Made by a program: the position numbers and the translations under genes. Below the pieces are notes generated by a model, which was given only the letters and a program-made list of their open reading frames with translations, searched no databases and was not told where the DNA came from. Below, piece after piece: positions 32,109-58,829 of a stretch of 64,000 bases of DNA (position 1 is the first letter of the stretch; each line of letters opens with the position of its first letter). The stretch comes from a virus. The stretch spans positions 64,001 to 128,000 of IMG/VR virus record IMGVR_UViG_3300027736_000020; one strand, written 5' to 3'.

Positions 32109-32714
32109 TTAGAAAGGGTTATCTTCCGTGTTCTTTGGCTGGGTCATGCTCTTGATCTTCGTGACAGCAGCTGCAGCCTCTTCACGGGACATGTTCTTTG
32201 CCTCGTCAAACGGAATGTCAAGTGCTGTGCTGATCTTTGTTGCGGCATCATCAGACATCCGCCACGTTACAGGAAGGGCAGGAACAACGTTTGCGCGGCT
32301 GATGGTTGCATTACGCTCCGCAAACACCTCCTCCCGGATATTTTCCTCAAGACCATCATTGCGGCCGAGTGCATCCATCCATGCACGCTTCTTTGCCCTT
32401 GACTCGGCAATGTGCATGTAGAAAGAAGGATTGGATACGCCATGAATGACATTGGCCCCGTTCTTGCGAGGGTACGCTGCTCCCATGGATGTGTAACGAC
32501 GATTAGGATCGCCTTCGCGCAATGGAGGCATGACCACCTCGGCCTTGATCACGCAAAGATACTCATTCGCGGGAGTTGGGGGCACTTCCATGGAAGTGTC
32601 GGTAGAAATCATTCCTGCGTTGCGGATTTCCTGAAGTACCTGATTGTACGATGGCCCGGAATCCCTTCCTCCGCCTGAGGAACGAAACCCACTGGATTGT
32701 GCGTATGCTGACAT
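32109..32714 (-). CDS. Putative Rad52/Sak-like single-strand annealing protein
   Basis: 201 aa, AGGAGA RBS. VIKAEV...RYTSMGAA...MHIAESRAKKRAWMDALG resembles the A-x-T/S-x-A-x-K-R-A-x3-LG helix of Rad52-like phage recombinases. Ends in acidic ..TEDNPF. Confidence 0.5.
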   Translation of the reverse strand: MSAYAQSSGFRSSGGGRDSGPSYNQVLQEIRNAGMISTDTSMEVPPTPANEYLCVIKAEVVMPPLREGDPNRRYTSMGAAYPRKNGANVIHGVSNPSFYMHIAESRAKKRAWMDALGRNDGLEENIREEVFAERNATISRANVVPALPVTWRMSDDAATKISTALDIPFDEAKNMSREEAAAAVTKIKSMTQPKNTEDNPF

Positions 32715-32737
32715 CGCCTATCTCCTAAGTAGTGCGC

Positions 32738-33418
32738 TTACCCCCAGTTGCTGGACGGCCATGGGAGGTGCGCCTTCCTCAATAATACACGAAGTCCGAG
32801 ATCCCTGCCTTTTTCCCACCGGGGAGCTGGGGGAGTCCATGACACGAACTCGAATCTTGGCTCATAGACAACGGCGTAGACTGTCTCGAATGCAGGAGAT
32901 GTTTCGTTGGAATTCCATAGCAAGGTTTTTCCCTCAGCTCCTCCAAGCACGTAATCTACATCCTGTTCCCATGTTGTTTCCGTTCCTGTCTCTGAGTTTA
33001 TTTGAGAAACACGAAGTATTTTTTTTACCGGAGTGTAAATCAGTTTGTCTTTTTTGCCGCGAATAAGCAATTCCCCCGGATACGGAAATCCTCTGCTCCA
33101 TGTAGGGATAATCTTGTCATAATCCTTGAATCTTCTTTGGCTATTAGGCAAGGGAGAACAGGACATGTCTTCAGGAAGCGCCATTCCAGTCTGCAACCAC
33201 ATCCTTCCTGTCCTGTCAGAATCAAGTCCAGTGATGATGGCAACAATCTTCTTGGGATTTATCCAGTACATTCCTAGACCATTGCAACGAACACAAGTGA
33301 TATTGGCATCTTCTGGTTTGCCCGTTGGGGAACAGGTACACAGTTGCCCTTGATAATGAGTAATGACTTCGCCATGCGACAATATCATCCGAGTGTGAAA
33401 GGGAATATGGATTGGCAT
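32738..33418 (-). CDS. Neck/head-closure protein (Zn-binding CxC...CxxC type)
   Basis: LCTCSPTGKPEDANITCVRCNGLGMYW matches the CPC...CxxCxGxG motif of SPO1/K-like head completion proteins. Confidence 0.65.
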   Translation of the reverse strand: MPIHIPFHTRMILSHGEVITHYQGQLCTCSPTGKPEDANITCVRCNGLGMYWINPKKIVAIITGLDSDRTGRMWLQTGMALPEDMSCSPLPNSQRRFKDYDKIIPTWSRGFPYPGELLIRGKKDKLIYTPVKKILRVSQINSETGTETTWEQDVDYVLGGAEGKTLLWNSNETSPAFETVYAVVYEPRFEFVSWTPPAPRWEKGRDLGLRVLLRKAHLPWPSSNWG

Positions 33419-34873
33419 TTACGCTCCTATGACACCCATGAGGAAACCACCCAGTTTGGATTTGATTCTCGGAATCTCCATCTGTATCCATTGCTCATGT
33501 GCCTGAATGGTTGTCGCATAGGGGCCACCCGGATTATAGGAAAGGCTGCTTGACAGGCCATCCCTTGACGCGGATTCTCCACCCACACCACCCTGATAGG
33601 CTCTTCCTGCCTCAGTAAGTATCGCACTCGTGGCAACCCGTGCAACAAGCTCCAGAACAACCGCACGGTCATTTTGCTCAAGATCAGGCAAGCCGAATGT
33701 TGCGGTGTAATTCCAGAATGAAGGCAGATCATTCCTCATGTAAAAAGGAGATAGCATTGGATTTGCAAATACTGTCCAGCTTACAAAACTACGTATTGAA
33801 GGGACAAGCGTGACAAAACTGCTCATCCTGTCAACCGTGTTGTTGTACCAGTCTCCATCAACCTCCACAAGTTTGTTTACCCCGAAATAGCCAACAAGAC
33901 GATGAATCTTGAGGCACCATTGCTGCGGGAATCGGAATCCCGGCCAATTGTTTGCGTTCCCACTGACGCGATAATCAACGGGCCTTCCGATCCTATCCCA
34001 ATGAAGTTCCTGTCGCATCTGACCCATGTGGTCATCTGCGTAACTGGGTGTTGCAGGAAGCGTCGTGTATATGTATGGCTCAATAGGAAACCCTAATTTT
34101 GATTCAACCGATCTTATTGAGTTTCTTATTCTTTCTTGTATCATTTCATCGTTCATCATTGACTCAGTGATGAGAATGTTTTCTGTCTTGTTAACGGTTG
34201 GCAGCAGAGATGAATCCACTGTAACAAGCATGTAATTTATTGTTGACTGATCAGTCATTATATATTGAGTATTGGTATTTGGTTCAATGATTATTGGATC
34301 ATCGTCTGACCATTCAAGTTTCCAATTGGGATTCAGATATGTCAATGTGAATAATTTTACGCCGGGAATGATTCCATAGGAAACTTCATCGATGGTCAAT
34401 CCAGTTATGACCTTTGGTTGAAATTTCGGCGCAAGAATTTCCTTTGCCTTGAGTGAAACACCAAACAACCATGATTCCTTTAATTTTTTTGTTGTCAACA
34501 AGGTAATGGTAACCTTGGATGTCATTTCCCAGTATTGAGATGCATCGACGGAATTTTCTACTGATACCCTGTATTTTCCAGAAATTGCCCGATTTATTGC
34601 ATCCTTGTCCAAGTCATCAGAACCGAGAAGAAAAGATACGGAGAATTTTCTGTCTGTCACAATTCCTGAAGTAACTATGACAGGCTTGCTCATTACGGTG
34701 CAAAATTGCTCGGGATAATTCAACGACGCAATTTTCTTTATTTTTACGGTAAATGATTCACCTGCCGTCACTGTTCCAGTAAATGATACAGAAACAACAA
34801 TGGTGTTCCTGTTTTCTTCGTACCTGCTATATTCAGTTGCATTGGCGCTTATTGACATAGCAGATATTTGCAT
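33419..34873 (-). CDS. Head-tail adaptor/neck protein
   Basis: 484 aa. The C-terminus (GESASRDGLSSSLSY...YATTIQAHEQWI...IKSKLGGFLMGVI) resembles SPO1/K-like adaptor proteins; adjacent to the closure gene. Confidence 0.6.
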   Translation of the reverse strand: MQISAMSISANATEYSRYEENRNTIVVSVSFTGTVTAGESFTVKIKKIASLNYPEQFCTVMSKPVIVTSGIVTDRKFSVSFLLGSDDLDKDAINRAISGKYRVSVENSVDASQYWEMTSKVTITLLTTKKLKESWLFGVSLKAKEILAPKFQPKVITGLTIDEVSYGIIPGVKLFTLTYLNPNWKLEWSDDDPIIIEPNTNTQYIMTDQSTINYMLVTVDSSLLPTVNKTENILITESMMNDEMIQERIRNSIRSVESKLGFPIEPYIYTTLPATPSYADDHMGQMRQELHWDRIGRPVDYRVSGNANNWPGFRFPQQWCLKIHRLVGYFGVNKLVEVDGDWYNNTVDRMSSFVTLVPSIRSFVSWTVFANPMLSPFYMRNDLPSFWNYTATFGLPDLEQNDRAVVLELVARVATSAILTEAGRAYQGGVGGESASRDGLSSSLSYNPGGPYATTIQAHEQWIQMEIPRIKSKLGGFLMGVIGA

Positions 34874-34874
34874 T

Positions 34875-35180
34875 TTATTTTTCCTGTTCTTTTTGATTAT
34901 CTATGCTATATCGTGTTCCACAAACACATTCTAGAACAAGTGATTTTCCAAGAATAAATACTTTTGTTTTTGAATTAATCATTACCGCTTTGTGAACAAC
35001 AGAATTTACCTCAAGAGTTGCGTTTGATTTTACCATTCTTGTCTTGCATTGCGGATTGGTGCAAACAAAATTTCCAGAGACAGACACATGTGGTTTTTGC
35101 AGGCTTTTTTGAAGTTTTTCAATGAGGGCAGATTGTTTTTCATCTTCTTGTGATCCATCGTTCATATTCTTCATCTTCAT
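34875..35180 (-). CDS. Small Zn-ribbon-like protein
   Basis: 101 aa with CTNPQC and ECVCG Cys pairs. Confidence 0.6.
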   Translation of the reverse strand: MKMKNMNDGSQEDEKQSALIEKLQKSLQKPHVSVSGNFVCTNPQCKTRMVKSNATLEVNSVVHKAVMINSKTKVFILGKSLVLECVCGTRYSIDNQKEQEK

Positions 35181-35688
35181 TGTTATCTTCTAAGGTCTTA
35201 ATTTCTTCATTATCTTGTTGATCCTGCTCTTCCACCACAATTGCTTGAAAGGACTTTATCACTTTTTCAACACAGGCGTTGGCATCATCAGTAATTTGCT
35301 TTCCCTCAAAATGAAAAACCTTATATCCTTTTGCCATTAACCATGAATCTTTGCGTCTGTCTTTCATCCTCGTTTTCATGTTGTTGTGCCAAAATTCTCC
35401 ATCGGCCTCAATGACGACATTGTGTTCTGGCAGAAAAAAATCAATTGACCATGGTCCTATGTCTGCTTGTTCAATAAAATTTATTCCTTTTCTTAGCAAT
35501 GCATATCGAAGTTGATTTTCTATGTTTGTTGCTTTTGCCGAAGAAGGAGAAGATGATATTTTTTTCTGGATATTCTTGGGAGGATCACCATAGTACCTTG
35601 ACCCTCTTTGACCGGGCAAAGAACTTATTGTTGTTTTCATGCCTGAATTTTTAATTGGCAATGATGAACTTGGTCCAACCCTTTTCAT
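35140..35688 (-). CDS. DUF559/Vsr-like PD-(D/E)xK endonuclease
   Basis: IENQLRYAL...FIEQADIGPWSIDFFLPEHNVVIEADGEFWH...DRRKDSWLMAKGYKVFHF is the characteristic DUF559 pattern. Confidence 0.85.
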   Translation of the reverse strand: MKRVGPSSSLPIKNSGMKTTISSLPGQRGSRYYGDPPKNIQKKISSSPSSAKATNIENQLRYALLRKGINFIEQADIGPWSIDFFLPEHNVVIEADGEFWHNNMKTRMKDRRKDSWLMAKGYKVFHFEGKQITDDANACVEKVIKSFQAIVVEEQDQQDNEEIKTLEDNNEDEEYERWITRR

Positions 35689-35691
35689 GAA

Positions 35692-36318
35692 TTATTTCCA
35701 TTTATCTAAGGCTTTTTCCAAACGGTTACGTCTTTCATGAGCAGTCTGTTCAGATTGAGACATTTTGAGTCTTTTCATCTTCCGTACCGACGAAGGTGCC
35801 AATCCTCTGGCATGTCCTCCTCCGGGAGAATTAGTCATGTATGTTCTAGAATATGCCGCAGCTCTGTTGGCTTTCTCAATGCGTTCTTTATCAAGATCTG
35901 TGTTGGCAATTTTACGCTTTTTTTCCTCCATTTTTTTCTCCTCTTCTTCTGACATTTCTTTACGGTGTTCTTTTTTGGCAATTCTGTACAGTCCATTGCC
36001 CATTTTTTCAAGAACGACAAATCTTCCATGAAGAGACGATTTCTTGTTATTTATTGGAACAATGACAAAAGTATTTTCTTTTGGCGCATCCCAATCAAAA
36101 CCTCCACCACCCATGATCATGGGCATGGGAATTGCTGTCTCAAATGAATTTCCGCTTTTTTCCAAACGGGCAAGACTATTTTCAATTTTATTTGTCAGAC
36201 TTCTTTCCATTGGATTCCTTGTCATCTTGTTTTTTTCATTATGGAGATTCAACAAAGCTCTTCTTTGTGCTTTGGCTTTTAATTTGGCTTCATATCTTTT
36301 TTGCGCTGATGTTTCCAT
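35692..36318 (-). CDS. Hypothetical basic protein
   Basis: 208 aa, K/R-rich; GGAG RBS; in operon. Confidence 0.7.
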   Translation of the reverse strand: METSAQKRYEAKLKAKAQRRALLNLHNEKNKMTRNPMERSLTNKIENSLARLEKSGNSFETAIPMPMIMGGGGFDWDAPKENTFVIVPINNKKSSLHGRFVVLEKMGNGLYRIAKKEHRKEMSEEEEKKMEEKKRKIANTDLDKERIEKANRAAAYSRTYMTNSPGGGHARGLAPSSVRKMKRLKMSQSEQTAHERRNRLEKALDKWK

Positions 36319-36344
36319 GATTGTCTCCTAAGTAAAAATTAATA

Positions 36345-37919
36345 TCAAGGAATTGGCTTTGGATTTGGAATAAAATTAACTCCATAAGTATTTTCATATG
36401 CATAATGCCAATGTGGATCTTTTGTTATTACTGACGGAGATTTCAATGATTCTGAAAACTTATTATTTACTCCTGTTGCAAATTGTCCTCTTGGATTTGC
36501 AGATTGAACTCGGCGTCCATTTCTGTCTAAAAACAGATTAGCAGGAACCATTTTTTCACCTGATGCGCTTGTTATGCCACGTCTAGCAGGATCATAATTG
36601 GACATCCAAAGTTTTTTTGCTTTGTCTATTTGTGCATCTATCAACTTTTGTTTATATAATTCTTCATTAGCGTCTTGGTGATGCCAATTATCAAGTGCAT
36701 TCATATTCCAAGTCATTCCCGAATTTGATGCTTCCCATATTTTTCTTTTTTCTTGCAAATTATTTGTCATGTCGTTCCATACAGGAGTATAACTTTGATC
36801 ATGATTTTGCATCTCATTTCCATATGTAGATCTTGCCCTGTCAATGAGAGAACCTAAATGTTGAGCGTAAGATGCCTGATATTTGTCAAATTCATTTTCG
36901 TGATTTTTCATTGCTCTCATTTGAGACTTTATTCTTGAGCCGGGAGTGTAAACTTGAGTTAGTGGATCAATATCGTCATAATAATTTTGCACTTGTGCAG
37001 TGGGAGCATTTCCATACGCAGATCTTTCCCATCCTGTTTGCTCGTATCCTCCGGTACTTGGATCGTACTTGCTTGTAGGCCTTGCCGCTCCCATGACATT
37101 GCTTGCTATGGCCCCTTTGCCTTGTGCAAAATTCTTAAAAGAATTAATAGGCAAAACGCCTCTTCCATAATGATTTGTTCCAAGCATTCCGGAAAGACCA
37201 TGATTGATAATATCGGCTCCATAAATACCAGCAAACGTCGTTGCATTTCCGATGGCCTGCAAGATGTTCCATCCAGCAGCGCTTCCTTTTCCTGAATAGT
37301 TGATTTTTTCAGGATTATCTGGATCAACCGTTCCTCCCCAAGAAGGGACAATACGCGGAAGTATTCCAAGTTGTTTTCTGTTAAGAAGATCCAGTGAATT
37401 TTGAGGCAAAACATTCCAAGAAGATCTTCCTCTTCCTGCATATCCTGCTTTTCTTTTGGCTTTGCTTAATGACTCATCAATGTTTTTTTTTGATTGAAAA
37501 GATTTTTTCAATGAATTGTCTTCAAGCAAAAATTCATCAGGGAGTCCTGCTCTTGCTATGGCTTTTTGTAGTGCCAACATTCTTCCTGATAATGCAATTT
37601 GCATTGCAGCATTGTATTTTTTGTTGTCGCCATTTTTTGCGCCAAATGCTGATTCGATTGTGTGATCTTCTACGGATGGAGAAAGAAGTTTCTCAAAATC
37701 CTCAGTTGTTACAAGTTTCCCAATGACGGTTTTGCCGCTCAATTTCTTTTTGGCATCATTGATCAGTTTTTCAGTATTTTCTGCAATTTTTTTGTCATTA
37801 TCTAGAGTAGTAGTATTTTCAACGATCTTATCGCTGAGCAACGAAAAATCCTTGTCATCTTTAGGCCAATACCAATTAATTGGCAGTATATCTTTTTGGG
37901 ATTTTTTTAACTTTTTCAT
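36345..37919 (-). CDS. Hypothetical protein, possible internal virion protein
   Basis: 524 aa; starts MKKLKKSQ and contains SLKKSF and SLSKAK; Gly-rich amphipathic middle section. Confidence 0.7.
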   Translation of the reverse strand: MKKLKKSQKDILPINWYWPKDDKDFSLLSDKIVENTTTLDNDKKIAENTEKLINDAKKKLSGKTVIGKLVTTEDFEKLLSPSVEDHTIESAFGAKNGDNKKYNAAMQIALSGRMLALQKAIARAGLPDEFLLEDNSLKKSFQSKKNIDESLSKAKRKAGYAGRGRSSWNVLPQNSLDLLNRKQLGILPRIVPSWGGTVDPDNPEKINYSGKGSAAGWNILQAIGNATTFAGIYGADIINHGLSGMLGTNHYGRGVLPINSFKNFAQGKGAIASNVMGAARPTSKYDPSTGGYEQTGWERSAYGNAPTAQVQNYYDDIDPLTQVYTPGSRIKSQMRAMKNHENEFDKYQASYAQHLGSLIDRARSTYGNEMQNHDQSYTPVWNDMTNNLQEKRKIWEASNSGMTWNMNALDNWHHQDANEELYKQKLIDAQIDKAKKLWMSNYDPARRGITSASGEKMVPANLFLDRNGRRVQSANPRGQFATGVNNKFSESLKSPSVITKDPHWHYAYENTYGVNFIPNPKPIP

Positions 37920-37921
37920 AG

Positions 37922-38695
37922 TTACATCACCACTCCGGATTGTACGACATTTGTATCAAAATTTTCGGCTTTTATGACTGGAAGATTTTCCAAAGGCATA
38001 GAACTCATATCTTCATCATCTATTTTGTGTCCCGCTTGATTCAAATAATACAATTGTAAATAATTATAAATAATTTTATTATGAAGATCTGTTGCATGAA
38101 TGACTTCCGGAGTTGCTCGTAAAATCTGTGGTATTCCTACCATGGGCAACAACAAATGAGAAGGTTTGTCGCAAATACCCAATGCGACTAATGACGCCCA
38201 TATGTATGCTGACTCATTCATTCCCATGGATTTCTGTTCTTCAATGAGATTTTCATCATATCCTGCTCGCCAATGAGGACACGTATCCATGCTTGAGGCA
38301 TACACAAGAAACTGAAAGTTTTTTATTTTTGGATTTAGGCATTTGCGTTTCAATGGATCCTTGCTGTTTTTTTCAGAAAGATATATGCATCCAATGCATG
38401 ATTTAAATTGTAAAAAATACCACCAAACGACGTGTTTGCCATTTGGCATTTTTGGAAGATCTACTCTTTCAACACCCAAGCATGCCATCATGTCAACAAC
38501 TTGTTCTGGACGAGACAGTATGTTCTGAGGAAGAGGTGAACGGTATGGTTCCAATTTTTTGGATAAGTCATCCATGAAAAATTTTGCCCAATCCCTATTT
38601 GCCGTATCAGACAATCTTGATCCAAATTGATTTTCGACGATGGATGGCACAGGTATTTTTACGGAAAAATTACTTGAGACTGTAGGATTATTCAT
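37922..38695 (-). CDS. Hypothetical protein with Cys cluster
   Basis: Likely start at 38695 (ATGA overlap with the upstream stop). Contains CIGC...KC...TCPHW. Confidence 0.65.
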   Translation of the reverse strand: MNNPTVSSNFSVKIPVPSIVENQFGSRLSDTANRDWAKFFMDDLSKKLEPYRSPLPQNILSRPEQVVDMMACLGVERVDLPKMPNGKHVVWWYFLQFKSCIGCIYLSEKNSKDPLKRKCLNPKIKNFQFLVYASSMDTCPHWRAGYDENLIEEQKSMGMNESAYIWASLVALGICDKPSHLLLPMVGIPQILRATPEVIHATDLHNKIIYNYLQLYYLNQAGHKIDDEDMSSMPLENLPVIKAENFDTNVVQSGVVM

Positions 38696-50407: not shown

Positions 50408-50429
50408 TTAATTTATGAGCAAACATGCA

Positions 50430-51110
50430 TTAGTCATCGTCTTCAGGATAATTTTGGTCGTCTATTCCGTCTTCATCTTGAATTGACCCAACTGCTGGCG
50501 GTCTGTAATGATCCGCAGAAAGAGTATACCCTTCTGGAATTTTTGGTGTTACATCAAAACCAGTGTATGGGTTCAGTTCATTTGGATGAAAATGCTCCAG
50601 AGGATGTATTCCAAGAGGGTTCGATCTCTTTATCTTACCCCGTCTATCTGAGTGCCTACCTGCTGGAGTTCCTTCTATTCCGGGATATTCAGTGTGAACT
50701 CCAAAAAATCCCAATATTGAGTGAGGTTTTGTCTTTTCAGCTTCTGGTGTTATTCTAAGTCCTCTTGTTTGTATCTCTTGCAATTTCTTGTATTCCTCTG
50801 GACTTGGAACGACATTTTGCGAATTGCCAGATAACCGTGCACTTAATCTGGAAAATATTGAAAATTCTCCGGGTGACAATCCCAACAATTCTGGATTCAT
50901 TTCTCCTTTTTTCGCTTCCGTCGATGATGGATAATAAGGATTTATTGGACGGATTGTTCCAGTATCTATTGTACCAGTATCAATTACATTTTCTTCTACT
51001 GAATCGTTAAGAGCGTCGGAAGGTAGTGTTCGGCCTTGGCCTAAATCTTCATCATCATCGTAGTCGTCGTCTATATCTTCAGTAACTGATGATTTTTTAA
51101 AAAAGAGCAT
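50430..51110 (-). CDS. Hypothetical protein, possible internal virion protein
   Basis: 226 aa. Begins MLFFKKS, nearly the same as the MLIFKKS start of the 2566-aa neighbour. Confidence 0.7.
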   Translation of the reverse strand: MLFFKKSSVTEDIDDDYDDDEDLGQGRTLPSDALNDSVEENVIDTGTIDTGTIRPINPYYPSSTEAKKGEMNPELLGLSPGEFSIFSRLSARLSGNSQNVVPSPEEYKKLQEIQTRGLRITPEAEKTKPHSILGFFGVHTEYPGIEGTPAGRHSDRRGKIKRSNPLGIHPLEHFHPNELNPYTGFDVTPKIPEGYTLSADHYRPPAVGSIQDEDGIDDQNYPEDDD

Positions 51111-51128
51111 TTTTTAATCCTAGTCTTT

Positions 51129-54100
51129 TCATGAATTTTCTGTATACATAGATCTTTTTAGATTTATTTTTTCCAATAATTCCTCAAGAAAAGGAGACCT
51201 TCCGTTTGAAGCAGTGCATATATGCAATTCATTTTCCGCTCTTGTCATTGCAACGTAAAAAAGATTTTTTTCTTGTTCTCGTGCAATTTCGTAATCTTTT
51301 TCATCTTTGCTTTCTGAAATGCGACTGTGCGGCCACCTATCATCCGTTACATTGTACAAAAATACTGTTTCAAATTCAGATCCTTTTGATTGATGTGCGT
51401 TTATTACTACTACTCCGCTTTTCTGTTCTTCATCGTGAGGTTCACCCCCAAAGTCTTCTTGCATTTCTTGATACAAGGTCATATCTTTGGAAGATGGAGC
51501 AACTTCTATTTTTAAATTGTAAAGTCTTTTCCTGAGGTCTGCAGCTTCTTTATTGGTTCTGCAAATAATTGCCATTGGAGGAACAAACACCCCTGCTCCC
51601 TTGTCTGTCCAAGGTATACGAACTCGATCATCTGGCCGGGCTTCGGATCCAAATTTTTTTCTAATGATGCTTGCCATGTAATTATCTTGCTCATTCATGG
51701 ATGCTTTTCCACTTTTGCTTTTGGCATTGAAAATATTTACTGTCCCTGACGCAGATCCAATTGTATCCCCCATTTTTCCAGAAATCCAATTTCTGCCGTC
51801 AAAAATAGTTGCCAATTGTGCCAATATGTATCTTGCTCGATAATTTACGCCAAGCATGACATTTTTTACTTTTCCTCTTGTGGAACCATTAAATAATCCA
51901 TGCCATTTTTCAAAATTTGTCGCATCAGAGAATTCTGTATTTGCGCCTCTGAATCCATATATAGCTTGATGTTCGTCGCCAACAACGGTGAGATTTGCTC
52001 CGTTTGATGCTGTTACTGCCTTAATAAGTCTTCTTTGCATTAAATTTATATCTTGAAATTCATCAACCATTACATGACGATATCTCGCTCGTACGTTATT
52101 CCTATCGTGATTGTTGTTTTCAAGATGTTTTGCTACTTTTGATATTAAGTCAGAATAATCCAGTTGATTATTGCTAGAAAGCATTTCATTGTATTTATGC
52201 CATATTCTTTCCAAAACAGGATTTTCCTTAATTTCTGACATGTTTTCAGTATCTTTTGCAGCCTGTATCTTTGTTGCAATTGTGGAGGAAAGACTTCCTT
52301 CTCCGGTATTTAATGCTCTCAACGCTACTTGTTGAGGCAAAGTAAATTGATTTATTATTGCAGTAATCATCTCTTCTTGTTTGTTTGTTCCTACCAATTG
52401 CAAATCTGGATCAAATGCTTTCTTTGTTCCTGTTTTTGCATTGTAATTTATTCCATCTATATTTAAAGCATCTACACCAGTAATTAATGAAAGGGCAAAA
52501 GAATGTGTTGTTGCTATTGTTGGATTTGCTCTGTCATCATTTATGTTGCCTGTTTTGAACGATAAAATACCGTCTTGCTTGCTTTTGTCTCTTAATTCGT
52601 TGTCAGTAAGACCTTCTTGTGTCAAAAATGTTGCAAATTTTCCCTTTTCTGCCGTGAATGAATCTTTGACTCTTCTTCTTGCGTCCCGAGAAAAAGTCAA
52701 CATGAGTATTTGTTCTTGGGAAACTCCGTATAATGACGACAACATGAGCATCAAAGCAACCAATGATTTTGTTTTTCCTGATCCCGGAATTCCCTTAACA
52801 ATTGTAGGTCCTGTGTTGTCTTGTTTTATTGCTGCCAATTGCGTGTCATTAAGCATGTCTTCAAAATATTTCGTTATTGCAACTTCTCTTGTGGCCCCAT
52901 TTCTTCCCCTTATGGTTTGAGCAGCTGTAGTCAATGTCGGACTTTGTCTGTCTCCTGAATCTCTAACAGTATTAACGGGAATTCTTTCGTGATCTTCAAT
53001 TTTGGATCCATTAGTATTTTCTTGCATGAGATCCTCATATCCATCAGGATATCTTCCATTCTCAAAAGCATTTGTCCAATTTATTCTGTTTTTTGCTTCT
53101 CCTTGTTTTGCTATCCAAAACAGCCTTAAAACTTCTCTTGTCCTTTCTTCATCGTCTGCACTATCATCATTTATTGCTTTTAGTTTTTGTATCAATGGAA
53201 TAGATGTGTCAGTTTCCTTCAGTGCAATTTTAAGAATGTCTAAAGCGTCTTTTTTTGTATCATCATCTTGCATTGATTTTTCAACATAACTGTCGCACAA
53301 CTGCCAATACAAATCTGACAAAGGATTCTTTGATCGTGATCCCCAGAATATTGTTCCATCTGATGCTTTCCATGTTGTTTCTGCTCCATCTACAGCAGAA
53401 GAGCTTAATCCTTGACCGCCCGGAAGAGATTCTATTGAATTTTTGTTTCCTGAATGAATAACAATGTTTATTTTCAAAGATTTTAATATGTCAAGCAATT
53501 CCTTGCTAAAAGATCCAATGGTTTTTCTCATGTCTTGAGGAGAAATAGTCCAATAATCAGGTATGTCTGTTGTTGTTGCGCGAGAATAATGTTCTGGAAT
53601 AGTAAAAACATGATTTTTTAGAAACTCACCATGTTCAGGAAATTTGTCAAATATTCCATCTTCATTAATTCCTGCCCTCAATGGTGATGGACTTGATGTG
53701 ACATCATCAGCAATATTTTTTAGAATCCGCATTGAAGGAATTGTTGCTGCTTCAGAATTTATGATTGCTTGATGATTTCGAAGTAATTGATCCTGTGATC
53801 CGTTATTCAAAGAAGAAATAATTTTGAAAATATCCGTAATAGCATCTGTATATGAAGATTGTTCAGATTGCGGTGGAATTCTATATATAACATCACTTGG
53901 TGAAATCTTGTGAATTGCAAATTGTTTTTCAGTTTTTTCTATGCGGTCTTTTTCTTTTTGAGATTTATCAAACGCTTCATTTATTGCCGCTGTTCTTGTT
54001 TCCGGATCTTTATCATAGCTTCCATTGAACAATTGTTCGTTTTTACTAAATTCTTCAAATTCTGTTTTCAATGATAAAAGTGTAGTGGCTGCATCACTTA

Positions 54101-57100
54101 TTTCTTTTTTATCACTTCTTGCTAATTGTTCTAAATTTCCTTTTGAAAATGAGAATCCAAGACTATAGCCTTTTCTTTCGTCAAGAGCATACAATGTTCC
54201 TTCTGCCCTGTCTATGTCTTTTACTAGTGTCCATTTTTCGACATCTCTGGCATTTGTAAACGAATTTGTTGACTGATAAGGAAATCTCATGTTATCATCA
54301 TCAGGTTTTGCGTCTGTTTTAATTGCTATTTTAGATCCCGGCAATAACGATGCTCCATTCAAGATGGTGTTTGCGTTATGAGTATCTATAATTACAAAAT
54401 GAACAGCAGTTCGTCTTAATTTTTTTTCTTCGTCTTTTTTTAATTTTCTTCTCTGATCATAACTATTCGGATCTGCATCGTCCAATGCTTTTGGAGCGCT
54501 GAATCTACCAAACAACTCTTGTGCTCCACTCCATAATTTAGAAATTCTTCCTTGTTCTACTTCTTTGTCAAGATTTAATTTTTCGTTATTTTTTTTGCTG
54601 AAAAGTCCACTCATATCAAGATAAAGGCTTTTGGGGTCTGCAAGTCTTCCAAACATTTTTGAAAAAAATAGTGACGCATAATTTTTGTCTTTTTTGTCAA
54701 GAAGGGTTTGTTGATGCTGACTGTTTGGTTTGATTGCATCATCAGTATGATTGTCTTCGGATTCATAATCTGTATCTGAAACAACAGGTAACATTACAAC
54801 AGCAAAATTTCCTCTTGTCGCTACTATTCTCCCTATAGCACTAGGATTAACTCCTTCAGCTGCTAAGCTAGCCAAACCTTTTGTAAAAAATTCTTTTATT
54901 TCAGGATCAATGTTCCATCCAGTAAAGCTTTGCAACCTTTCAAGTTGTTGATTATTTGATAAATTAGCATTAATATTTCCATGATCTGCAATTTCTGAAA
55001 TTTGAGTTATTTCTGATGGCCGGAAAACGCCTAAATCTAACTGGGGAACATTTGTATTGCCCAATACTGCATCCAGCGTATTGTTTGCAGCACTTTTTAC
55101 ACTTGAAAAATTACTACTAAAAAGATTATTATCTGCTTTCATTTTATGCGACAGCAATTGCGCTTGATGTCTTATGGGTGTCATGTCAACCCAATATTTA
55201 GTATTGCCGTTGGCATCTTTTCCAGATATTACTTTCAATGAAATGCTTATTGAATTACCAGTGTTTGTGGTTGCCTGATTGCCATTTGCTGGATTTTCTT
55301 GATCTATCCTTTTTGTTCCAGAAAACGTCAATCCATTTATTGTAATAAATTTACCATTTGCCGAAAGACTAAACCCAAGATTTTGTCCTTCAGTCATTAT
55401 GACTCTGTCACCTACCTGTGCATCTGCATTGTCTGCAATAATTAATCCTTTCTTATTATTTATTTTATTTTTCAATCCATTTGTTACTATTTTCAAGAGC
55501 TCTGCTTTGCTGGTTATTGGTGTTTTTTCAGGTTGCTCGACCCCAAAAAAAGCAAGTGACCCATATTCGTCATTTACCAATGAATGTGGAAACACCCATT
55601 CATGTGCCAAGCTTGGCTTTTCTCCATAAATTTTTCTCTCATCATCGGTTACGGGAGAAACATTTAGAGCAGTTATTACGGATGCTACTTCAGCTGGCGG
55701 AACATCCTTGGGAAGAGCGGCAGGATGTGTAAATCCTGTTTGCAAAATTGTATTATCTTTTTCGGCTTCATTGATTTTGACCAAAATATCATCATTGTCA
55801 ATAAGCCTTCTTATGGTGACAGATGGATGTTCTCCGGCAGGAGAAACAATAGGACTAGCACTAATTTTTGCTTGTTTTGCGATAATCATTGAGGGACTAT
55901 CTGCTGGACCTACCGCGCCATTGAGCATCATTCCGTCTGCAGGTTCTTGTTGTATTAGATTTCCATTTACGTCAAGCATTTTAGGGGTTTCTGAATTTTT
56001 CAATGCAATTGCTGCAACAAAATGTTGATTAGCTGCATGTTGAGCCATCGTGTCTTCAACAATTGATAATGCATAATTATAAAGTGCTCTTTTTTGAGCA
56101 CTATCGCCGCCACGTGAAGCGATTTTTATTTTTTGTTCTGCGTTATACTCCTGTTTTGTTTTAGAAAGTGAATCAAGAATATTTTGTGAACTAATTGATG
56201 TTGAATCGAGCAATTCAATAAAATCTTTTTCTGATGGATTTTTTGGCTTTCCTCTTTTAAAAACTGTATATTTTGAATTTTCTCTTGTTTCTTTTATCCA
56301 TTTCTCAATTTTTTCTTGTAATTCTCCTGCAAGATTTCCTTCTTCGATTTTTCTTTTTAAAAGAACATACTTGTCACCATCACTATTGTGCTTTTCCCAA
56401 GCACTTATTTTTTTTCTATCTTCTATTTGATCTTTAAGTGCTCCATGATTTGTCCCTGAATTTGAGCGCAAAAATGACGCAATATATTCGTCATCGGTTG
56501 GTTCGTCATTCTTGAGTTCAAAATCAGGATTTTTTATTTCATCCGCTACTTCATATGTGACTTGCGATATGGGAGTTGGCGGAGCTTTTTTCCAAAATGG
56601 ACTAGTGGCAAAAAAACTTTTTTTCTGATCAGGATTCAGGCCATTAAGAGTATCGTCGAAATTTTTCGTTGATTTGTACAGTGATCCATCTGGATTTTCT
56701 TTGTATATGAGAACGTGCATTTTAGTAAAATCATTTTCAAATTTTACATGAGCAAACATTGTTTCAACACCTGTTGTTGGTGGCCTAAGTCTAAAGAATA
56801 AGCTGCCATTTTCCATTCGAATAGGGTCAGTTCCTAATTCCGGCGGTTCTGCAACGGAGAATTTTGACACATCAGAGGGAATGTCTCTATGAATATCTTG
56901 AAAAGCTCCTGCTGTTCCAATTGGTTCAGAACCATCTGGAAAATATTCGCGATCATTGCCTGCTATAGTGGTTATTCCGGACGTTACGGTGACCCTTCGC
57001 CCTGTTGCATCAACAGGAGCAACTATTCCGGGCTGCTCCCTCATGTATTGAAGTGCTTTCTTTTTGATTGTTTCAATATCTGCTTGTCCATTTCCATTAA

Positions 57101-58829
57101 AAGTCAAAAAATCTACAAGTTTTCTAGCATTTAATGTCCAAGTTCCACCTTTATGTCCAGACAAATTTCTGTTTTGAAAATCGCTCAAAGACTCCTGTTC
57201 TGTTCCCGGAGCAAAGATTCCATTATCTTCTGCATTTCCAAAAGCTTTTAATATGTCATTCCTTGTCTTGTCAGGAAGACTTGAAAATGCATCTTTCCAC
57301 TTTTGTTTTTCTTCGTCAGTTTCAAATAGTTTTCCAGGGGTAGTTTTCCATTTCGTATATAGTTCTCCAAAAGAAAGACTGCTGTTTCTTCGAGCAGCAC
57401 CTAGTTTTTTTATTACTTCTTGATGCCATCTTTCAATGTTTTTCTTAGCATTAGGCCATCCAAAAACCCCTCCAAATGGCAGTGCAACGCCAATGTTTCC
57501 ATTTAATCTTGTATCGGCTTCCGTTGCCATCATTGATTTGCTTACTGCTTGATTCCTTAATATTGATGCATTGCTCCAAGCTTCAGTAACTTTTCTTGCA
57601 AGATTAGATATGTCTTCTGAATCGCTATCCTTTGCCGGAATTAAATTGTCAAGTATTTCATTGAGATGTTCCTTTCTTAGAGACCCTTGTACCCATATAC
57701 CATCTTCGTTTTTTTCAAATCTATCAGCGTGAGAAAGTATTTTGTCCTTATTGTCATCAGTTAATGCTGCTGAGTCCAGCAATCTCTTAAAGTCTTCGTG
57801 CTTATACAGATCAGCAAGGTGCTCGCGAACGGTATTCGGGTCAATATTCGACCCTTCGGTTGCTTCTGGAAGAGGAGCCAACAAACTGTCATCATGCCCT
57901 ATAAAATGATGCAAAGGAATTCCCAACAGGCTTGTTGGTTTATACAAATGATCAGTTAACTTTTGATGGTTTAAACTTAATAAACCACCTTTACGTCCAT
58001 TTCCTTTTTCCCAACCAAAAAAAGTCTTGAGAAGTTTTTTGGTTCCATCAGTCATCGAATGCCAATAAATATGTTTTTCAACCTTGTCTTGATCGGTTCG
58101 TACTTGGGTTTTTTCTGGATCAAAGCCGTTAATTGGACTAAACCCAATAAGACCAGATGCAGAAACAAAAACACGTTCTAAAATGCCTTGACTTATTGTT
58201 TTCTTTCCAAGATCAATTATTTTTGTTGGGAAACCTTCCGAATGAATGAACTTCATTGGTTGTACTTCCATTAGTACGCTTCCACCAGCATGAGCAATGG
58301 ACTTGTCTGATTCTGGTCCGTGTGTGTCAATTGTTCCATCTTCAATCGGAGGATATGTTGTCTTGGGAAATTTTACAAATCTTTCAACTAGTCTTTTTCC
58401 TGTGTTAGTTATCCTGTTCCATATGCCACGTTGTTCCGCTTGTTCTGGATGAGCAAGTCCTATTTGATCTCTGGTTAGCTGTACTCCATCTGCGGAAATT
58501 TTAGTAACTTTTGGATGTAGTATTCTAGTCATAACATCGGTTTGTTGTGGCTCAGAAGCCAAATGAGTAACATGAATTCCAACTGTTTCTCCAGCAATGT
58601 TTACATGATTACCAATATGCGTTAGTAGTCCTTTGTTGGTATCAAGAGGATGAACAGGACCTGATAATTCAACGTTATGAATTGGAGCATCACTTTTACT
58701 AAGGTCATCTGCGTTCAGTTCCAAATCACTTGCTCTGTTAGGTATACTTTGTGATTTGAAAAATAATCCAAATTTTATTTTTTTTGAAGAGAAAAAATCT
58801 TCGTAGATGCTTTTCTTAAAAATCAGCAT
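51129..58829 (-). CDS. Giant polyvalent protein with C-terminal UvrD/Rep/PcrA-type SF1 helicase
   Basis: 2566 aa. At about 51150-52860: LNDTQLAAI (Q), GIPGSGKT (I), LTFSRDA (Ia), TTHSFA, VMVDEFQDIN (II), VVGDEHQAIYGFRGA (III), NYR (IV), ICRTN (IVa), AHQSKGSEF (V), FYVAMTRAE (VI). The N-terminal ~1990 aa are unrecognised. Confidence 0.9.
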   Translation of the reverse strand: MLIFKKSIYEDFFSSKKIKFGLFFKSQSIPNRASDLELNADDLSKSDAPIHNVELSGPVHPLDTNKGLLTHIGNHVNIAGETVGIHVTHLASEPQQTDVMTRILHPKVTKISADGVQLTRDQIGLAHPEQAEQRGIWNRITNTGKRLVERFVKFPKTTYPPIEDGTIDTHGPESDKSIAHAGGSVLMEVQPMKFIHSEGFPTKIIDLGKKTISQGILERVFVSASGLIGFSPINGFDPEKTQVRTDQDKVEKHIYWHSMTDGTKKLLKTFFGWEKGNGRKGGLLSLNHQKLTDHLYKPTSLLGIPLHHFIGHDDSLLAPLPEATEGSNIDPNTVREHLADLYKHEDFKRLLDSAALTDDNKDKILSHADRFEKNEDGIWVQGSLRKEHLNEILDNLIPAKDSDSEDISNLARKVTEAWSNASILRNQAVSKSMMATEADTRLNGNIGVALPFGGVFGWPNAKKNIERWHQEVIKKLGAARRNSSLSFGELYTKWKTTPGKLFETDEEKQKWKDAFSSLPDKTRNDILKAFGNAEDNGIFAPGTEQESLSDFQNRNLSGHKGGTWTLNARKLVDFLTFNGNGQADIETIKKKALQYMREQPGIVAPVDATGRRVTVTSGITTIAGNDREYFPDGSEPIGTAGAFQDIHRDIPSDVSKFSVAEPPELGTDPIRMENGSLFFRLRPPTTGVETMFAHVKFENDFTKMHVLIYKENPDGSLYKSTKNFDDTLNGLNPDQKKSFFATSPFWKKAPPTPISQVTYEVADEIKNPDFELKNDEPTDDEYIASFLRSNSGTNHGALKDQIEDRKKISAWEKHNSDGDKYVLLKRKIEEGNLAGELQEKIEKWIKETRENSKYTVFKRGKPKNPSEKDFIELLDSTSISSQNILDSLSKTKQEYNAEQKIKIASRGGDSAQKRALYNYALSIVEDTMAQHAANQHFVAAIALKNSETPKMLDVNGNLIQQEPADGMMLNGAVGPADSPSMIIAKQAKISASPIVSPAGEHPSVTIRRLIDNDDILVKINEAEKDNTILQTGFTHPAALPKDVPPAEVASVITALNVSPVTDDERKIYGEKPSLAHEWVFPHSLVNDEYGSLAFFGVEQPEKTPITSKAELLKIVTNGLKNKINNKKGLIIADNADAQVGDRVIMTEGQNLGFSLSANGKFITINGLTFSGTKRIDQENPANGNQATTNTGNSISISLKVISGKDANGNTKYWVDMTPIRHQAQLLSHKMKADNNLFSSNFSSVKSAANNTLDAVLGNTNVPQLDLGVFRPSEITQISEIADHGNINANLSNNQQLERLQSFTGWNIDPEIKEFFTKGLASLAAEGVNPSAIGRIVATRGNFAVVMLPVVSDTDYESEDNHTDDAIKPNSQHQQTLLDKKDKNYASLFFSKMFGRLADPKSLYLDMSGLFSKKNNEKLNLDKEVEQGRISKLWSGAQELFGRFSAPKALDDADPNSYDQRRKLKKDEEKKLRRTAVHFVIIDTHNANTILNGASLLPGSKIAIKTDAKPDDDNMRFPYQSTNSFTNARDVEKWTLVKDIDRAEGTLYALDERKGYSLGFSFSKGNLEQLARSDKKEISDAATTLLSLKTEFEEFSKNEQLFNGSYDKDPETRTAAINEAFDKSQKEKDRIEKTEKQFAIHKISPSDVIYRIPPQSEQSSYTDAITDIFKIISSLNNGSQDQLLRNHQAIINSEAATIPSMRILKNIADDVTSSPSPLRAGINEDGIFDKFPEHGEFLKNHVFTIPEHYSRATTTDIPDYWTISPQDMRKTIGSFSKELLDILKSLKINIVIHSGNKNSIESLPGGQGLSSSAVDGAETTWKASDGTIFWGSRSKNPLSDLYWQLCDSYVEKSMQDDDTKKDALDILKIALKETDTSIPLIQKLKAINDDSADDEERTREVLRLFWIAKQGEAKNRINWTNAFENGRYPDGYEDLMQENTNGSKIEDHERIPVNTVRDSGDRQSPTLTTAAQTIRGRNGATREVAITKYFEDMLNDTQLAAIKQDNTGPTIVKGIPGSGKTKSLVALMLMLSSLYGVSQEQILMLTFSRDARRRVKDSFTAEKGKFATFLTQEGLTDNELRDKSKQDGILSFKTGNINDDRANPTIATTHSFALSLITGVDALNIDGINYNAKTGTKKAFDPDLQLVGTNKQEEMITAIINQFTLPQQVALRALNTGEGSLSSTIATKIQAAKDTENMSEIKENPVLERIWHKYNEMLSSNNQLDYSDLISKVAKHLENNNHDRNNVRARYRHVMVDEFQDINLMQRRLIKAVTASNGANLTVVGDEHQAIYGFRGANTEFSDATNFEKWHGLFNGSTRGKVKNVMLGVNYRARYILAQLATIFDGRNWISGKMGDTIGSASGTVNIFNAKSKSGKASMNEQDNYMASIIRKKFGSEARPDDRVRIPWTDKGAGVFVPPMAIICRTNKEAADLRKRLYNLKIEVAPSSKDMTLYQEMQEDFGGEPHDEEQKSGVVVINAHQSKGSEFETVFLYNVTDDRWPHSRISESKDEKDYEIAREQEKNLFYVAMTRAENELHICTASNGRSPFLEELLEKINLKRSMYTENS
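56975..57004. repeat. 30-nt dispersed repeat, copy 2
   Basis: ttccggacgttacggtgacccttcgccctg; 29/30 identical to 48657..48686. Confidence 0.9.

Follow-up and report, generated by a model that had tools for sequence, protein, structure and literature searches.

Giant helicase, DprA and HD genes at the front of a phage head-gene block: a possible hypervariable capsid cargo cassette

Why do three giant genes, each with a single recognisable enzyme domain, stand at the front of the head-assembly gene block of an uncultured 184-kb phage? The question arises from a 64,000-nucleotide stretch of DNA analysed as a whole, called here the window. The initial annotation had described three giant co-oriented genes, and both the open reading frames (ORFs) and the Pfam matches agree with that description: all three lie on the minus strand and carry a UvrD/PcrA helicase, a DprA Rossmann domain and an HD domain, respectively. 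The features are given below in the direction of transcription (aa, amino acids; an arrow marks a predicted cut).

58823..59829, minus strand: two ORFs of 171 and 164 aa that open the minus-strand block, adjoining a divergent plus-strand unit
51129..58829, minus strand: UvrD giant, 2566 aa; ORF with Pfam, PHROG and NCBIfam helicase matches
50430..51110, minus strand: 226-aa acidic protein, pI 4.6, which starts MLFFKK↓S
50144..50407, minus strand: basic, Lys-rich protein of 87 aa; ORF between the two largest giants
43471..50139, minus strand: DprA giant, 2222 aa; Pfam DNA_processg_A
42792..43457, minus strand: 221-aa His-rich protein; alignment and synteny
38692..42783, minus strand: HD protein, 1363 aa; Pfam HD
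37922..38695, minus strand: 257-aa protein (273 aa from a GTG at 38743); alignment and synteny
36345..37919, minus strand: 524-aa basic protein that begins MKKLKKS; a slot of variable size
35692..36318, minus strand: 208-aa protein with a small conserved core and a charged tail; alignment
35140..35688, minus strand: DUF559/Vsr-like endonuclease, 182 aa; family match and synteny
32109..34873, minus strand: three conserved ORFs (484, 226 and 201 aa) that separate the cassette from the protease
30898..31944, minus strand: head maturation protease, 348 aa; phrog_1028, E 7e-26
29288..30886, minus strand: acidic scaffold-like protein, 532 aa; motif counts and composition
27521..29266, minus strand: major head protein (MCP), 581 aa; phrog_752, E 3e-38

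From 59829 to 32109, 16 genes form a 27.7-kb block in which every gap is below 50 nt, and the block is followed by the protease, the scaffold and the MCP, after which a strong hairpin with a T-run occurs. Neither a terminator nor a gap was found between the giants and the head-associated genes, and it is from this tight packing only that their co-transcription and co-expression with the head genes would be expected. The giants had been placed directly upstream of the head genes; they do belong to the same block, but eight ORFs (37922-32109) lie between them and the protease, and the portal is encoded ~78 kb away, so that the locus is not a classical portal-adjacent cargo locus. Replication genes (DnaE-like, SSB, RNR) are clustered elsewhere in the genome. 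The GC content of the giants is the minimum of the genome (0.35 versus 0.44). In composition they are ordinary globular proteins, free of repeats and low-complexity stretches.

In the largest giant, a UvrD/PcrA-type SF1 helicase occupies the C-terminal part (UvrD-helicase, AAA_19 and UvrD_C at aa 1993-2541, E 4e-41; window 51207-52853), and alignment to PcrA (1pjr) reveals intact GSGKT, DEFQD, VGDxxQxIYxFRGA and TRA motifs. The protein begins with the tag MLIFKK↓S (aa 1-7, motif at residues 3-7), a second FFKS follows at aa 23-26, and the ~1,960 residues between the tag and the helicase belong to no recognisable family. The tag is also borne by a 90% homologue. The more distant G003 orthologue starts MVVVFRKS, a looser hydrophobic-x-K-S form (VFRK↓S), and the remaining N-terminus cannot be aligned.

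The second giant carries its DprA domain at aa 858-1032 (E 4e-22; window 47044-47568), with the signature SGxAxGxD..H, LPG and RNR intact, between an acidic stretch of the first 800 residues and ~1,190 unrecognised C-terminal residues; no SAM or C-terminal winged-helix domain was detected in this protein. The best solved relatives of the domain are DprA 8zva and the ShosA antitoxin 9vzo (both E ~4e-7), and ShosA binds ssDNA (PMC11961720). Moreover, the orthologues in two relatives, G003 (4272 aa) and G002 (4486 aa), contain a NADAR domain after DprA. This fusion, together with the ShosA match, suggests that counter-defence is at least as likely as the loading of RecA on the entering genome, a role that is not favoured here.

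The third giant has an HDIG-type domain spanning aa ~860-1010 (Pfam HD at aa 871-983, 27.5 bits against a cutoff of 22; aa 871-1004 correspond to window ~39772-40173). Its six His/Asp positions, H...HD...H...H...D, do not vary among 7 homologues, and among 12 each is fixed or at least 90% conserved. The N-terminal 790 aa gave a confident structure model that matched no known fold, and the conserved C-terminal ~260 aa were likewise matched to none. A search for the ART-like domain previously proposed for this protein gave no support. Among 1.84 billion proteins, the family has 9 representatives, which measure 1315-1374 aa, apart from a pair of fragments (144 and 190 aa). Beyond the three enzyme domains, ~5,000 residues of the giants, searched in tiles of 400-860 aa, had no Pfam, PHROGs or NCBIfam match even at E<=5.

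The small genes that accompany the giants are largely conserved in place. The 226-aa acidic protein, for which no family match was found, bears the same tag as the UvrD giant, and one ENA relative has an 83-aa ORF at the position equivalent to the 87-aa protein. The His-rich protein, with invariant GHW, HPH, NxHPV, EYLAHExHR and APDHI, always separates the HD protein from the last giant; the 257-aa protein, with its invariant Cys and Trp residues, always follows the HD protein. The slot of the 524-aa protein ranges from 330 to 1848 aa in relatives and is occupied by pentapeptide repeats in G002, while the core of the 208-aa protein reads PMPM..DWDAP..PINNKKSSLHGRFVVL. The DUF559 nuclease had been reported correctly; it keeps its place in all HD-bearing relatives (47-87% identity) and is thus not a sporadic homing endonuclease. 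The upstream 164-aa ORF has a membrane helix and a coiled coil, and the 226-aa ORF before the protease matches the virion structural family phrog_1004. Finally, the candidate previously called Rad52-like corresponds to the 201-aa ORF (32109-32714) immediately upstream of the protease. It gave ESM-Atlas leads (score 0.88-0.89, TM 0.39-0.40) and no Rad52-like match in Pfam, NCBIfam or the PDB profile, and so would be a weak lead to a single-strand annealing protein (SSAP).

The neighbourhood described in the initial annotation recurs in at least eight related contigs: G001 (partial), G002, G003, two from ENA, L039, L041 and L042. Loss of these genes from homologous phages had been named as an argument against packaging, and it was found in part, since the giant slot of L041 holds a single unrelated protein of 2359 aa and in G005 the corresponding place contains no giant. 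Between G003 and G002, head and tail proteins are 72-92% identical, the HD protein 46% and the giants 26%; between G000 and G001, the values are 88% for the MCP, 61% for the HD protein and 24% for the C-terminus of the DprA giant. The giants therefore diverge far faster than the head genes and can be swapped. Such extreme divergence and replaceability resemble the signature of an arms race, and the NADAR fusion, the pentapeptide repeats and the ShosA match appear to give the cassette of relatives a counter-defence flavour. The MCP itself is nearest to those of SPO1-like, Bacteroides DAC and Thermus phages (22-25% identity).

The evidence that links the giants to the capsid comes from a short motif. 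The scaffold contains 11 copies of hydrophobic-x-K-[S/A] where 1.3 would be expected (~8-fold, z 8.1, top of 167 ORFs), and the head maturation protease has 7, again with 1.3 expected (~5-fold, z 5.4); the sites in both proteins are kept in relatives. The scaffold contains Pro/Gly and poly-acidic stretches, and its conserved C-terminal domain carries most of the 11 motifs. In addition, LNKSF is common to the scaffold and the N-terminus of the capsid protein, 17-21 residues in, where the alignment shows a conserved PLNK↓SFD at aa 16-22. This enrichment and position indicate that the motif is likely the site of the head protease. Family placement of the protease beyond phrog_1028 was not found, so that its specificity is read from motif statistics only.

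The genome contains 13 copies of a strict form of the motif, defined as two hydrophobic residues followed by [KR]K[SAT], and 10 of these lie within the first 40 residues of a protein (binomial p 8e-8). The resulting tag is hydrophobic, ends in [KR]K[SA], is often followed by acidic residues and stands 3-35 residues from the initial Met; it is also present on a NADAR protein encoded elsewhere in the genome. Inside the giants, observed motif counts about equal expected ones. The DprA giant has no tag (0 of 4 homologues), and the HD family shows a weak version, K-S near residues 5-9 in 4 of 7 homologues, which is absent from this phage's protein and from that of G001. In the partial contigs of relatives, the strict motif was near the N-terminus in 1 of 14 cases, the G003 UvrD giant, against 1.4 expected. 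The enrichment in scaffold and protease, together with the LNKSF common to scaffold and capsid protein, gives strong, though indirect, support to the suggestion of the initial annotation that K[S/A] motifs mark packaged proteins, while its interpretation as a whole appears partly supported.

The helicase giant's tag, which resembles a signal for loading into the capsid followed by cutting, and the position in the head block suggest that the giants are probably injected with the phage DNA. Built on directly observed ORFs, domains, intact catalytic motifs, gene order, divergence, motif statistics and tag, the preferred reading, held with about even confidence, is that the stretch represents a hypervariable capsid cargo cassette of the P1 Dar or T4 internal-protein kind, directed against host defence or acting on the entering DNA. 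Packaging, ejection, cleavage at the motif and the target of each enzyme are inferred. From the promoter-proximal end of the head-assembly gene block, the giants and their small conserved partners would be produced together with the head proteins. The hydrophobic N-terminal tag, a short peptide that closes with [KR]K↓[SA], would then bring into the prohead, at a minimum, the UvrD giant and its 226-aa acidic neighbour. There the head maturation protease would cut the tag off, just as it would cleave hydrophobic-x-K↓[SA] sites in the scaffold, in the capsid protein and in its own chain. The cargo would be retained in the capsid and enter the cell along with the DNA, and the helicase, DprA (with NADAR in relatives) and a binuclear HD hydrolase would go to work during the opening minutes, more probably against host defences than on the incoming DNA. 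For the DprA giant and the HD protein, entry into the head would have to depend on something else, for example an internal site or helper proteins of the kind that P1 DarB requires in Ulx and DdrB (PMC9024508).

A different explanation, unlikely but deserving serious weight, regards the giants as an ordinary, unpackaged intracellular module for replication, recombination or concatemer processing before packaging, whose proximity to the head genes would reflect timing only. Every recognisable domain acts on DNA, and five functions (helicase, DprA, HD, Vsr-like nuclease and a possible SSAP, the last a weak lead from the ORF upstream of the protease) also fit intracellular recombination or repair, which counts against the cargo reading. 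The DprA giant without a tag fits such a module too, as do the DUF559 endonuclease and the 201-aa ORF, conserved at 47-92% identity like housekeeping phage genes, and jumbo phages keep free-standing DprA/Smf and UvrD-type helicases (PMC7824862). However, phages normally conserve their replication and recombination enzymes comparatively well, whereas no genes here evolve faster than the giants (24-26% identity, as against 75-88% for the MCP), which are also replaceable; the replication genes proper are grouped elsewhere. Furthermore, ~80% of each giant is unrecognised and surplus to such enzymes, the tag of the UvrD giant is found on unrelated proteins and matches the scaffold and protease motif, and the NADAR domain and pentapeptide repeats of relatives are not recombination functions.

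It is improbable that the giants are chiefly architectural components of the head interior (inner body, core or DNA-organising proteins) with secondary or vestigial enzymes. The head-operon location, the protease-type tag on one giant, the large size with mostly unrecognised sequence and the fast divergence typical of inner-body proteins would all suit this role, and SPN3US heads are reported to enclose ejection proteins totalling >40 MDa, which the prohead protease processes (PMC7411985, PMC10052503). Nevertheless, the catalytic motifs are intact in all three giants and are the sole parts conserved across distant relatives, which argues for selection on activity; the ordinary globular composition, the absence of a giant in G005 and the single one in L041 also speak against an architectural function. 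Equally doubtful are early, unpackaged counter-defence proteins expressed from the divergent promoter region at ~59.8 kb, with a tag serving, for example, translation efficiency or turnover: the giants come first after the divergent junction, their GC is like that of accessory regions, the NADAR and pentapeptide themes of relatives do not require packaging, and the extended -10-like promoters of several tagged genes in other places could indicate early expression by host RNAP, but an effect on translation initiation would not explain a tag of varying position that matches the scaffold, protease and MCP motif, and the giants run on to the head-associated genes uninterrupted.

The preferred reading, that of a capsid cargo cassette, can be set beside several known systems. 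With bacterial DprA/Smf and ShosA, the second giant shares a Rossmann-type domain with its signature residues, here embedded mid-way in a 2222-aa protein. The ejection or inner-body proteins of phiKZ-like phages (SPN3US, phiKZ) include many large, fast-evolving, head-internal proteins; the prohead protease trims them at a short motif, and they reach the cell by ejection. However, that capsid lineage and motif are different, and no virion RNA polymerase subunits were recognised here. Phage polyvalent proteins (Iyer, Burroughs, Anand, de Souza, Aravind 2017) are likewise very large and carry conflict-related enzyme domains; their genes stand among those of the virion, and both packaging and injection have been predicted for them (PMC5512222). 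They have 2-15 recognisable domains, whereas the giants have one each, and two (DprA and NADAR) only in relatives; MuF, portal-fusion, MPTase, ART and the methylase-SNF2 dyad were not found. A few plasmid polyvalent proteins carry UvrD-like helicases, and DprA is not listed as a polyvalent-protein domain, being mentioned once in another context (PMC5512222).

The gp21 protease of T4 has an LxE motif, and the ip genes of T4 are plastic between relatives. As in T4, where internal proteins carry a cleaved capsid-targeting sequence (PMC9024508), as in IPI-III and Alt, a short N-terminal peptide here ends in the putative head-protease motif, which is common to otherwise unrelated proteins and abundant in the scaffold, and the candidate cargo genes are hypervariable between relatives. 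The T4 motif is (L/I)xE↓, in contrast to hydrophobic-x-[KR]K↓[SA] with its predicted cleavage here; moreover, the cargo candidates are 10-30 times larger than T4 cargo, and the tag is on one of the three giants.

In P1, Dar proteins have no sequence homology to these giants and no consensus tag, whereas here a consensus tag is common to other proteins of the genome. DarB combines a methyltransferase with an SF2 helicase, in contrast to the SF1 UvrD-type helicase, DprA and HD distributed here over three giants, and the P1 order ulx-darB-prt(portal)-pro(protease) places the portal adjacent (PMC9024508), not distant as here. The likeness lies in a giant enzyme-bearing protein encoded immediately upstream of head-morphogenesis genes: DarB (251 kDa) has a helicase domain, depends on small partner proteins, is packaged, being targeted by its N-terminal 30 residues, and is assumed to accompany the DNA into the cell (PMC9024508, PMC5512222).

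Judged by its sequence, the stretch is most likely a cassette in the head operon that encodes hypervariable cargo. The IMG/VR record to which it belongs has 184,088 bp and an estimated completeness of 97%, and a very long minus-strand gene run starts at 59829. From there to 32109 (27.7 kb), 16 ORFs follow one another with every intergenic gap below 50 nt. A 164-nt gap separates these from the protease, after which come an acidic protein resembling a scaffold and the major head protein (MCP). The giants share a tightly packed block with protease, scaffold and MCP, which is a virion and packaging gene context.

51129-58829, minus strand: giant 1, UvrD, 2566 aa
43471-50139, minus strand: giant 2, DprA, 2222 aa
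38692-42783, minus strand: giant 3, HD, 1363 aa
30898-31944, minus strand: head maturation protease (phrog_1028, E 7e-26)
29288-30886, minus strand: acidic scaffold-like protein
27521-29266, minus strand: major head protein (phrog_752, E 3e-38)

The portal gene is present on the same strand, about 78 kb beyond the head genes, which means that the head module is split. Directly past the capsid gene (27432-27520), a strong GC-rich hairpin with a T-run is likely an intrinsic terminator or attenuator separating head genes from neck and tail genes. Consensus scans for promoters and terminators gave matches at chance level and are uninformative on timing. The GC content of the giant-gene region (34000-60000) is the lowest of the genome, at 0.35-0.37 versus 0.44 overall and about 0.50 in MCP, scaffold and protease. 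Recent foreign insertion was considered as the cause of this dip and rejected, since the same relative dip occurs at the giants of the related phage records G002 and G003, and it thus belongs to the locus itself. Immediately past the divergent junction, the plus strand encodes a fourth giant of 1935 aa (genome 126218-132025, L043:2519-8326, window 62218-64000 and beyond), which lacks both a Pfam domain and an N-terminal tag of the kind described below and is followed by a class II ribonucleotide reductase. At the ends of the record, the first 350 bp (genome 1-349) recur 3-5 times with 94-100% identity in the last 3 kb (181-184 kb), and these copies may mislead inference on genome ends.

The initial annotation had described each giant as one recognisable enzyme domain in long unrecognised sequence, and searches of Pfam, PHROGs and NCBIfam agree, with one domain in each. 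The UvrD giant carries a C-terminal helicase (Pfam UvrD-helicase, E 4e-41; UvrD_C, E 1e-15), while its NCBIfam pcrA match (E 2e-36) is far below the equivalog cutoff. Aligned with PcrA (1pjr), the helicase has the corresponding motifs I, II, III, V and VI (GSGKT, DEFQD, VGDxxQxIYxFRGA, HxSKGxEF, TRA), and these motifs place the protein among the UvrD/PcrA/Rep SF1A helicases with 1A/2A RecA-like domains. The segment between motifs III and V spans about 140 aa versus about 265 aa in PcrA, and the 2B region accordingly looks shortened by about 125 residues, a 'minimal' form. In the DprA giant, a Rossmann domain lies in the middle of the protein (Pfam DNA_processg_A, PF02481, E 4e-22, covering profile positions 60-207 of 212). 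TIGR00732 matches it at E 2e-15, which stays under the equivalog cutoff. The DprA signature SGxAxGID..AH / GxG / E.PPG / RNR is present, PDB comparison matches DprA and ShosA equally (both E 4e-7), and Pfam finds neither a SAM nor a winged-helix domain.

Domain dissection, which had been proposed as a check, yielded three domains that could be aligned or profiled and nothing in the remaining residues, about 5,000 in number. These gave no Pfam match even at E<=5 on ten tiles, and nothing in PHROGs, NCBIfam, PDB sequence or PDB profile searches; aa 1-1980 of the UvrD giant had no usable ESM Atlas match. The unrecognised sequence is of ordinary composition, without internal repeats, and this 80% of the giants may conceal more domains. 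The only close relatives found for the giants are 90-92% copies, with no IMG/VR match for the UvrD N-terminus, and in cultured phages the UvrD and DprA domains occur as free-standing genes. The list of domains fits an ordinary intracellular recombination and repair set, and so does the tagless DprA giant described below; such a set nevertheless seems somewhat unlikely, as the size of the giants, their divergence, their exchangeability and the tag do not fit it.

The third giant scores 27.5 bits against the Pfam HD profile (cutoff 22) and 20.8 bits against HDIG in NCBIfam, below the 27.6 cutoff. Its residues H872, H910-D911, H929, H961 and D1002 do not vary among 7 homologues, and among 12 each is kept in all or nearly all (>=90%), so that the H...HD...D metal ligands of HD phosphohydrolases are present. 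An AF2 model of the C-terminal half from 5 sequences resolved only the HD core (pLDDT 63-89). In the VIA search the best match of this core was 3wfo_A (Z 16.2, rmsd 3.7, 197 aligned), from a tRNA A-adding enzyme whose HD-like half it resembles; PhnZ (Z 10.3) and GppA (Z 10.0) came next. The ART-like part that had been suggested for this protein gained no support: aa 1010-1363 have no Pfam, NCBIfam or PDB-profile match, and the AF2 model there has pLDDT <35, too low to judge the fold by. The N-terminal half, modelled from 12 sequences, reached pLDDT 70. Its best Foldseek match in PDB had E 0.019, and some weak matches of PUR-alpha/Whirly-like type had probabilities of 0.66-0.69; the best VIA-wide match had Z 6.7, the best in BFVD was an uncharacterised protein of Erwinia phage phiEa2809 (E 3.5e-5, TM 0.12), and Atlas matches stayed at TM <=0.23. 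As the model is long and multi-domain, these weak matches are no proof of a new fold. An exhaustive HMM search with this half found 9 representatives only among 1.84 billion proteins, 7 of them full-length (1315-1374 aa) and 2 short pieces, and tblastn (E<=1) found no match to the HD protein in cultured phages. Two orphan families always flank it:

42792-43457: His-rich orphan of about 220 aa, with invariant GHW, HPH, EYLAHExHR and APDHI
37922-38695: Cys-rich orphan of about 260 aa, with four invariant Cys

Neither orphan has a library match, and the His-rich protein looks like a metal enzyme by its conserved residues.

Two smaller genes of the run had also been named at the outset. The DUF559 nuclease (PF04480) proved real, at 47.7 bits versus a cutoff of 20.6, with Vsr at 28.8 versus 27; a mobile homing endonuclease was rejected as its explanation, given that it occupies the same position in all relatives. 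The Rad52-like protein can be traced to a 201-aa ORF (32109-32714), for which ESM Atlas offers weak leads (a Rad52_Rad22-containing cluster at 0.89, Sak at 0.88). Structure comparison is also weak (TM 0.40 to Rad52, 0.39 to ERF), and searches of Pfam, NCBIfam and PDB profiles gave no match to Rad52, Sak or ERF. This ORF is 59-90% identical among relatives and stands directly upstream of the head protease in every one of them, including G005, where no giant lies at the syntenic place. The site just before the head protease is an odd one for an annealing protein.

A possible link between the cassette and the head comes from short sequence motifs. The N-terminal tag, defined as a pair of hydrophobic residues before [KR]K[SAT], was searched for in 167 crude ORFs of the whole genome (58,396 residues). 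It occurs 13 times, and 10 of the 13 occurrences lie in the first 40 residues, where 1.5 are expected (binomial p 8e-8). The residue past K is S, A or T, often with acidic residues next. Carriers include the UvrD giant (MLIFKKS) and the adjoining 226-aa ORF (50430-51110, minus strand; MLFFKKS), so that at the sequence level both possess a tag of the sort found on CTS-type cargo. The 90% homologue of the UvrD giant also has the tag, and the orthologue in G003 begins with MVVVFRKS, a looser hydrophobic-x-K-S, its other N-terminal residues (about 2,000) being unalignable. DprA giants have no tag at the N-terminus. The HD family is an ambiguous case: 4 of its 7 members have K-S at residues 5-9, but the protein of this genome does not. 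Genome-wide N-terminal enrichment was not reproduced in the partial contigs of relatives, because the regions with the other tagged genes lie outside them.

The related motif hydrophobic-x-K-[S/A] occurs 11 times in the scaffold versus 1.3 expected (z 8.1, the genome maximum), mostly in its conserved C-terminal domain, and 7 times in the protease versus 1.3 expected (z 5.4). These sites are kept in relatives, LNKSF is common to the scaffold and residues 17-21 of the capsid protein, and the giants show no internal enrichment. A T4-like prohead protease, breaking down the scaffold, trimming itself and cutting a short propeptide off the capsid protein, would be expected to show such a distribution. 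Since the motif is found in scaffold, protease and MCP N-terminus, it is plausibly the cleavage site, and the tag plausibly a cleavable targeting peptide. The protease has no family assignment beyond phrog_1028; it may be HK97-like, to go by its appearance (GIAS..D..GE...NWNH...IGK, GFSVEG). In HK97, gp5 is cut after Lys103. A predicted complex between the core of the protease and residues 1-45 of the UvrD giant scored 0.05, which speaks neither for nor against.

Elsewhere in this genome (146595-160274, locus L035) there is a cluster of large tagged ORFs of 849, 696, 617, 705 and 1271 aa, the first of which has a NADAR domain; some of them are preceded by TGATATAAT-like extended -10 elements. 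Early, non-packaged counter-defence proteins would be in keeping with these elements upstream of some tagged genes and with the position of the giants beside the divergent junction. That reading is very doubtful, however, as it does not account for the tag being identical to the motif of scaffold and protease.

Relatives of the capsid protein in IMG/VR are 57-88% identical, and their contigs show how the cassette varies. The recurring order is UvrD giant, two small ORFs, DprA giant, His-rich protein (about 220 aa), HD-family protein (about 1350 aa), Cys-rich protein (about 260 aa), a variable ORF, an ORF of about 200 aa, DUF559, ORFs of 484, 226 and 201 aa, protease, scaffold and MCP. A search for the neighbourhood in related contigs had been proposed as a check, and the order was seen in G001 (partial), G002, G003, two ENA contigs, L039 and L042, with three informative departures. 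In L041, whose phage type occurs in 62 blocks of the assembly collection, the giant slot holds one protein of 2359 aa, in which Pfam finds no domain and which has no BLAST match among the giants here, and in G005 the syntenic place has no giants and no HD protein, although this record is 41% complete and their absence there does not mean absence from the genome. The giants of G003 measure 4202 and 4272 aa, those of G002 >3965 and 4486 aa. A NADAR domain lies just past DprA in the DprA giants of both, so that, set against the at least two different conflict-related domains per polypeptide that define polyvalent proteins, these have DprA plus NADAR and each giant here has one recognisable domain. 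The variable ORF of G002 (L025:10998-16544), counterpart of a 524-aa ORF here, encodes 1848 aa with pentapeptide repeats (E 2e-37), a fold known for DNA mimicry.

Between G003 and G002, head and tail proteins are 72-92% identical and DUF559 82%, with 46% for the HD protein, 44% for the His-rich protein and 26% for the giants. Between this genome and G001, the values are 88% for MCP, 61% for the HD protein and 24% for the DprA-giant C-terminus. The scaffold contains (G)PPxGG repeats, a poly-Asp/Glu run of about 80 residues and a conserved C-terminal domain; its centre is unalignable between relatives, and its C-terminal 210 residues are 58-97% identical. Among distant relatives the giants can be aligned in their enzyme domains only, and a mainly architectural inner-body role is highly improbable, being a poor fit to such selective conservation of catalytic motifs.

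If the stretch is a cargo cassette, its proteins would be produced together with those of the head and loaded into the prohead. The tag would bring in the UvrD giant and its small neighbour at least, and the others would perhaps enter via conserved small partners. The head protease would then trim the cargo, which would be delivered with the DNA. After entry, a role in counter-defence or takeover is favoured over genome circularisation or repair. This leaning is based on the NADAR-DprA fusion of relatives and the DNA-mimic-type pentapeptide protein in the cassette, on the DprA domain matching ShosA, an antitoxin that binds ssDNA, no less well than bacterial DprA, and on the locus evolving like an arms-race locus. 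The enzymes may instead act on the phage's own entering DNA. A bolder and distinctly unlikely proposal is that a whole capsid-borne DNA-handling kit (SF1 helicase, DprA-type ssDNA/RecA mediator, binuclear HD nuclease or phosphodiesterase, and dedicated small partners) enters before or with the genome and seizes the host's RecA/RecBCD-centred response to linear DNA, the slot being an arms-race locus that exchanges whole giants between related phages. If true, the virion would deliver a system of recombination mediators, and no such class is known to have been described.

Should the giants be packaged, three enzyme types (UvrD helicase, DprA and HDIG hydrolase) would join the known or predicted injected phage proteins, together with several orphan families, including the 1363-aa protein with its 9 representatives. 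The motif hydrophobic-x-[KR]K|[SA], with its matching protease, would then be a second sequence-defined "load and cut" tag, usable for loading foreign proteins into capsids. Cargo that evolves fast beside a nearly frozen head module could serve as a marker for counter-defence genes in uncultured phages. Without packaging, the giants would be no more than unusually large, rapidly diverging recombination enzymes of modest interest.

Cargo targeted to capsids is a known kind, and so are giant proteins that are injected; new here are the domain set (UvrD, DprA and this HD family), the Lys-Ser type of tag and motif, the orphan conserved partners and the documented turnover of whole giants. Polyvalent proteins (PMC5512222) are the general class for these giants, and the 2017 survey of them recorded UvrD in a few plasmid polyvalent proteins only, with DprA and this HD family not recorded as domains (PMC5512222). 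The literature search found no paper tying DprA to virions. The internal proteins and Alt of T4 follow the same tag-plus-protease logic as proposed here. The closest precedent is ulx-darB-prt-pro of P1, which has the same logic as the cassette: DarB, a 251-kDa protein with a helicase domain, is packaged by way of its N-terminal 30 residues and depends on small helpers (PMC9024508).
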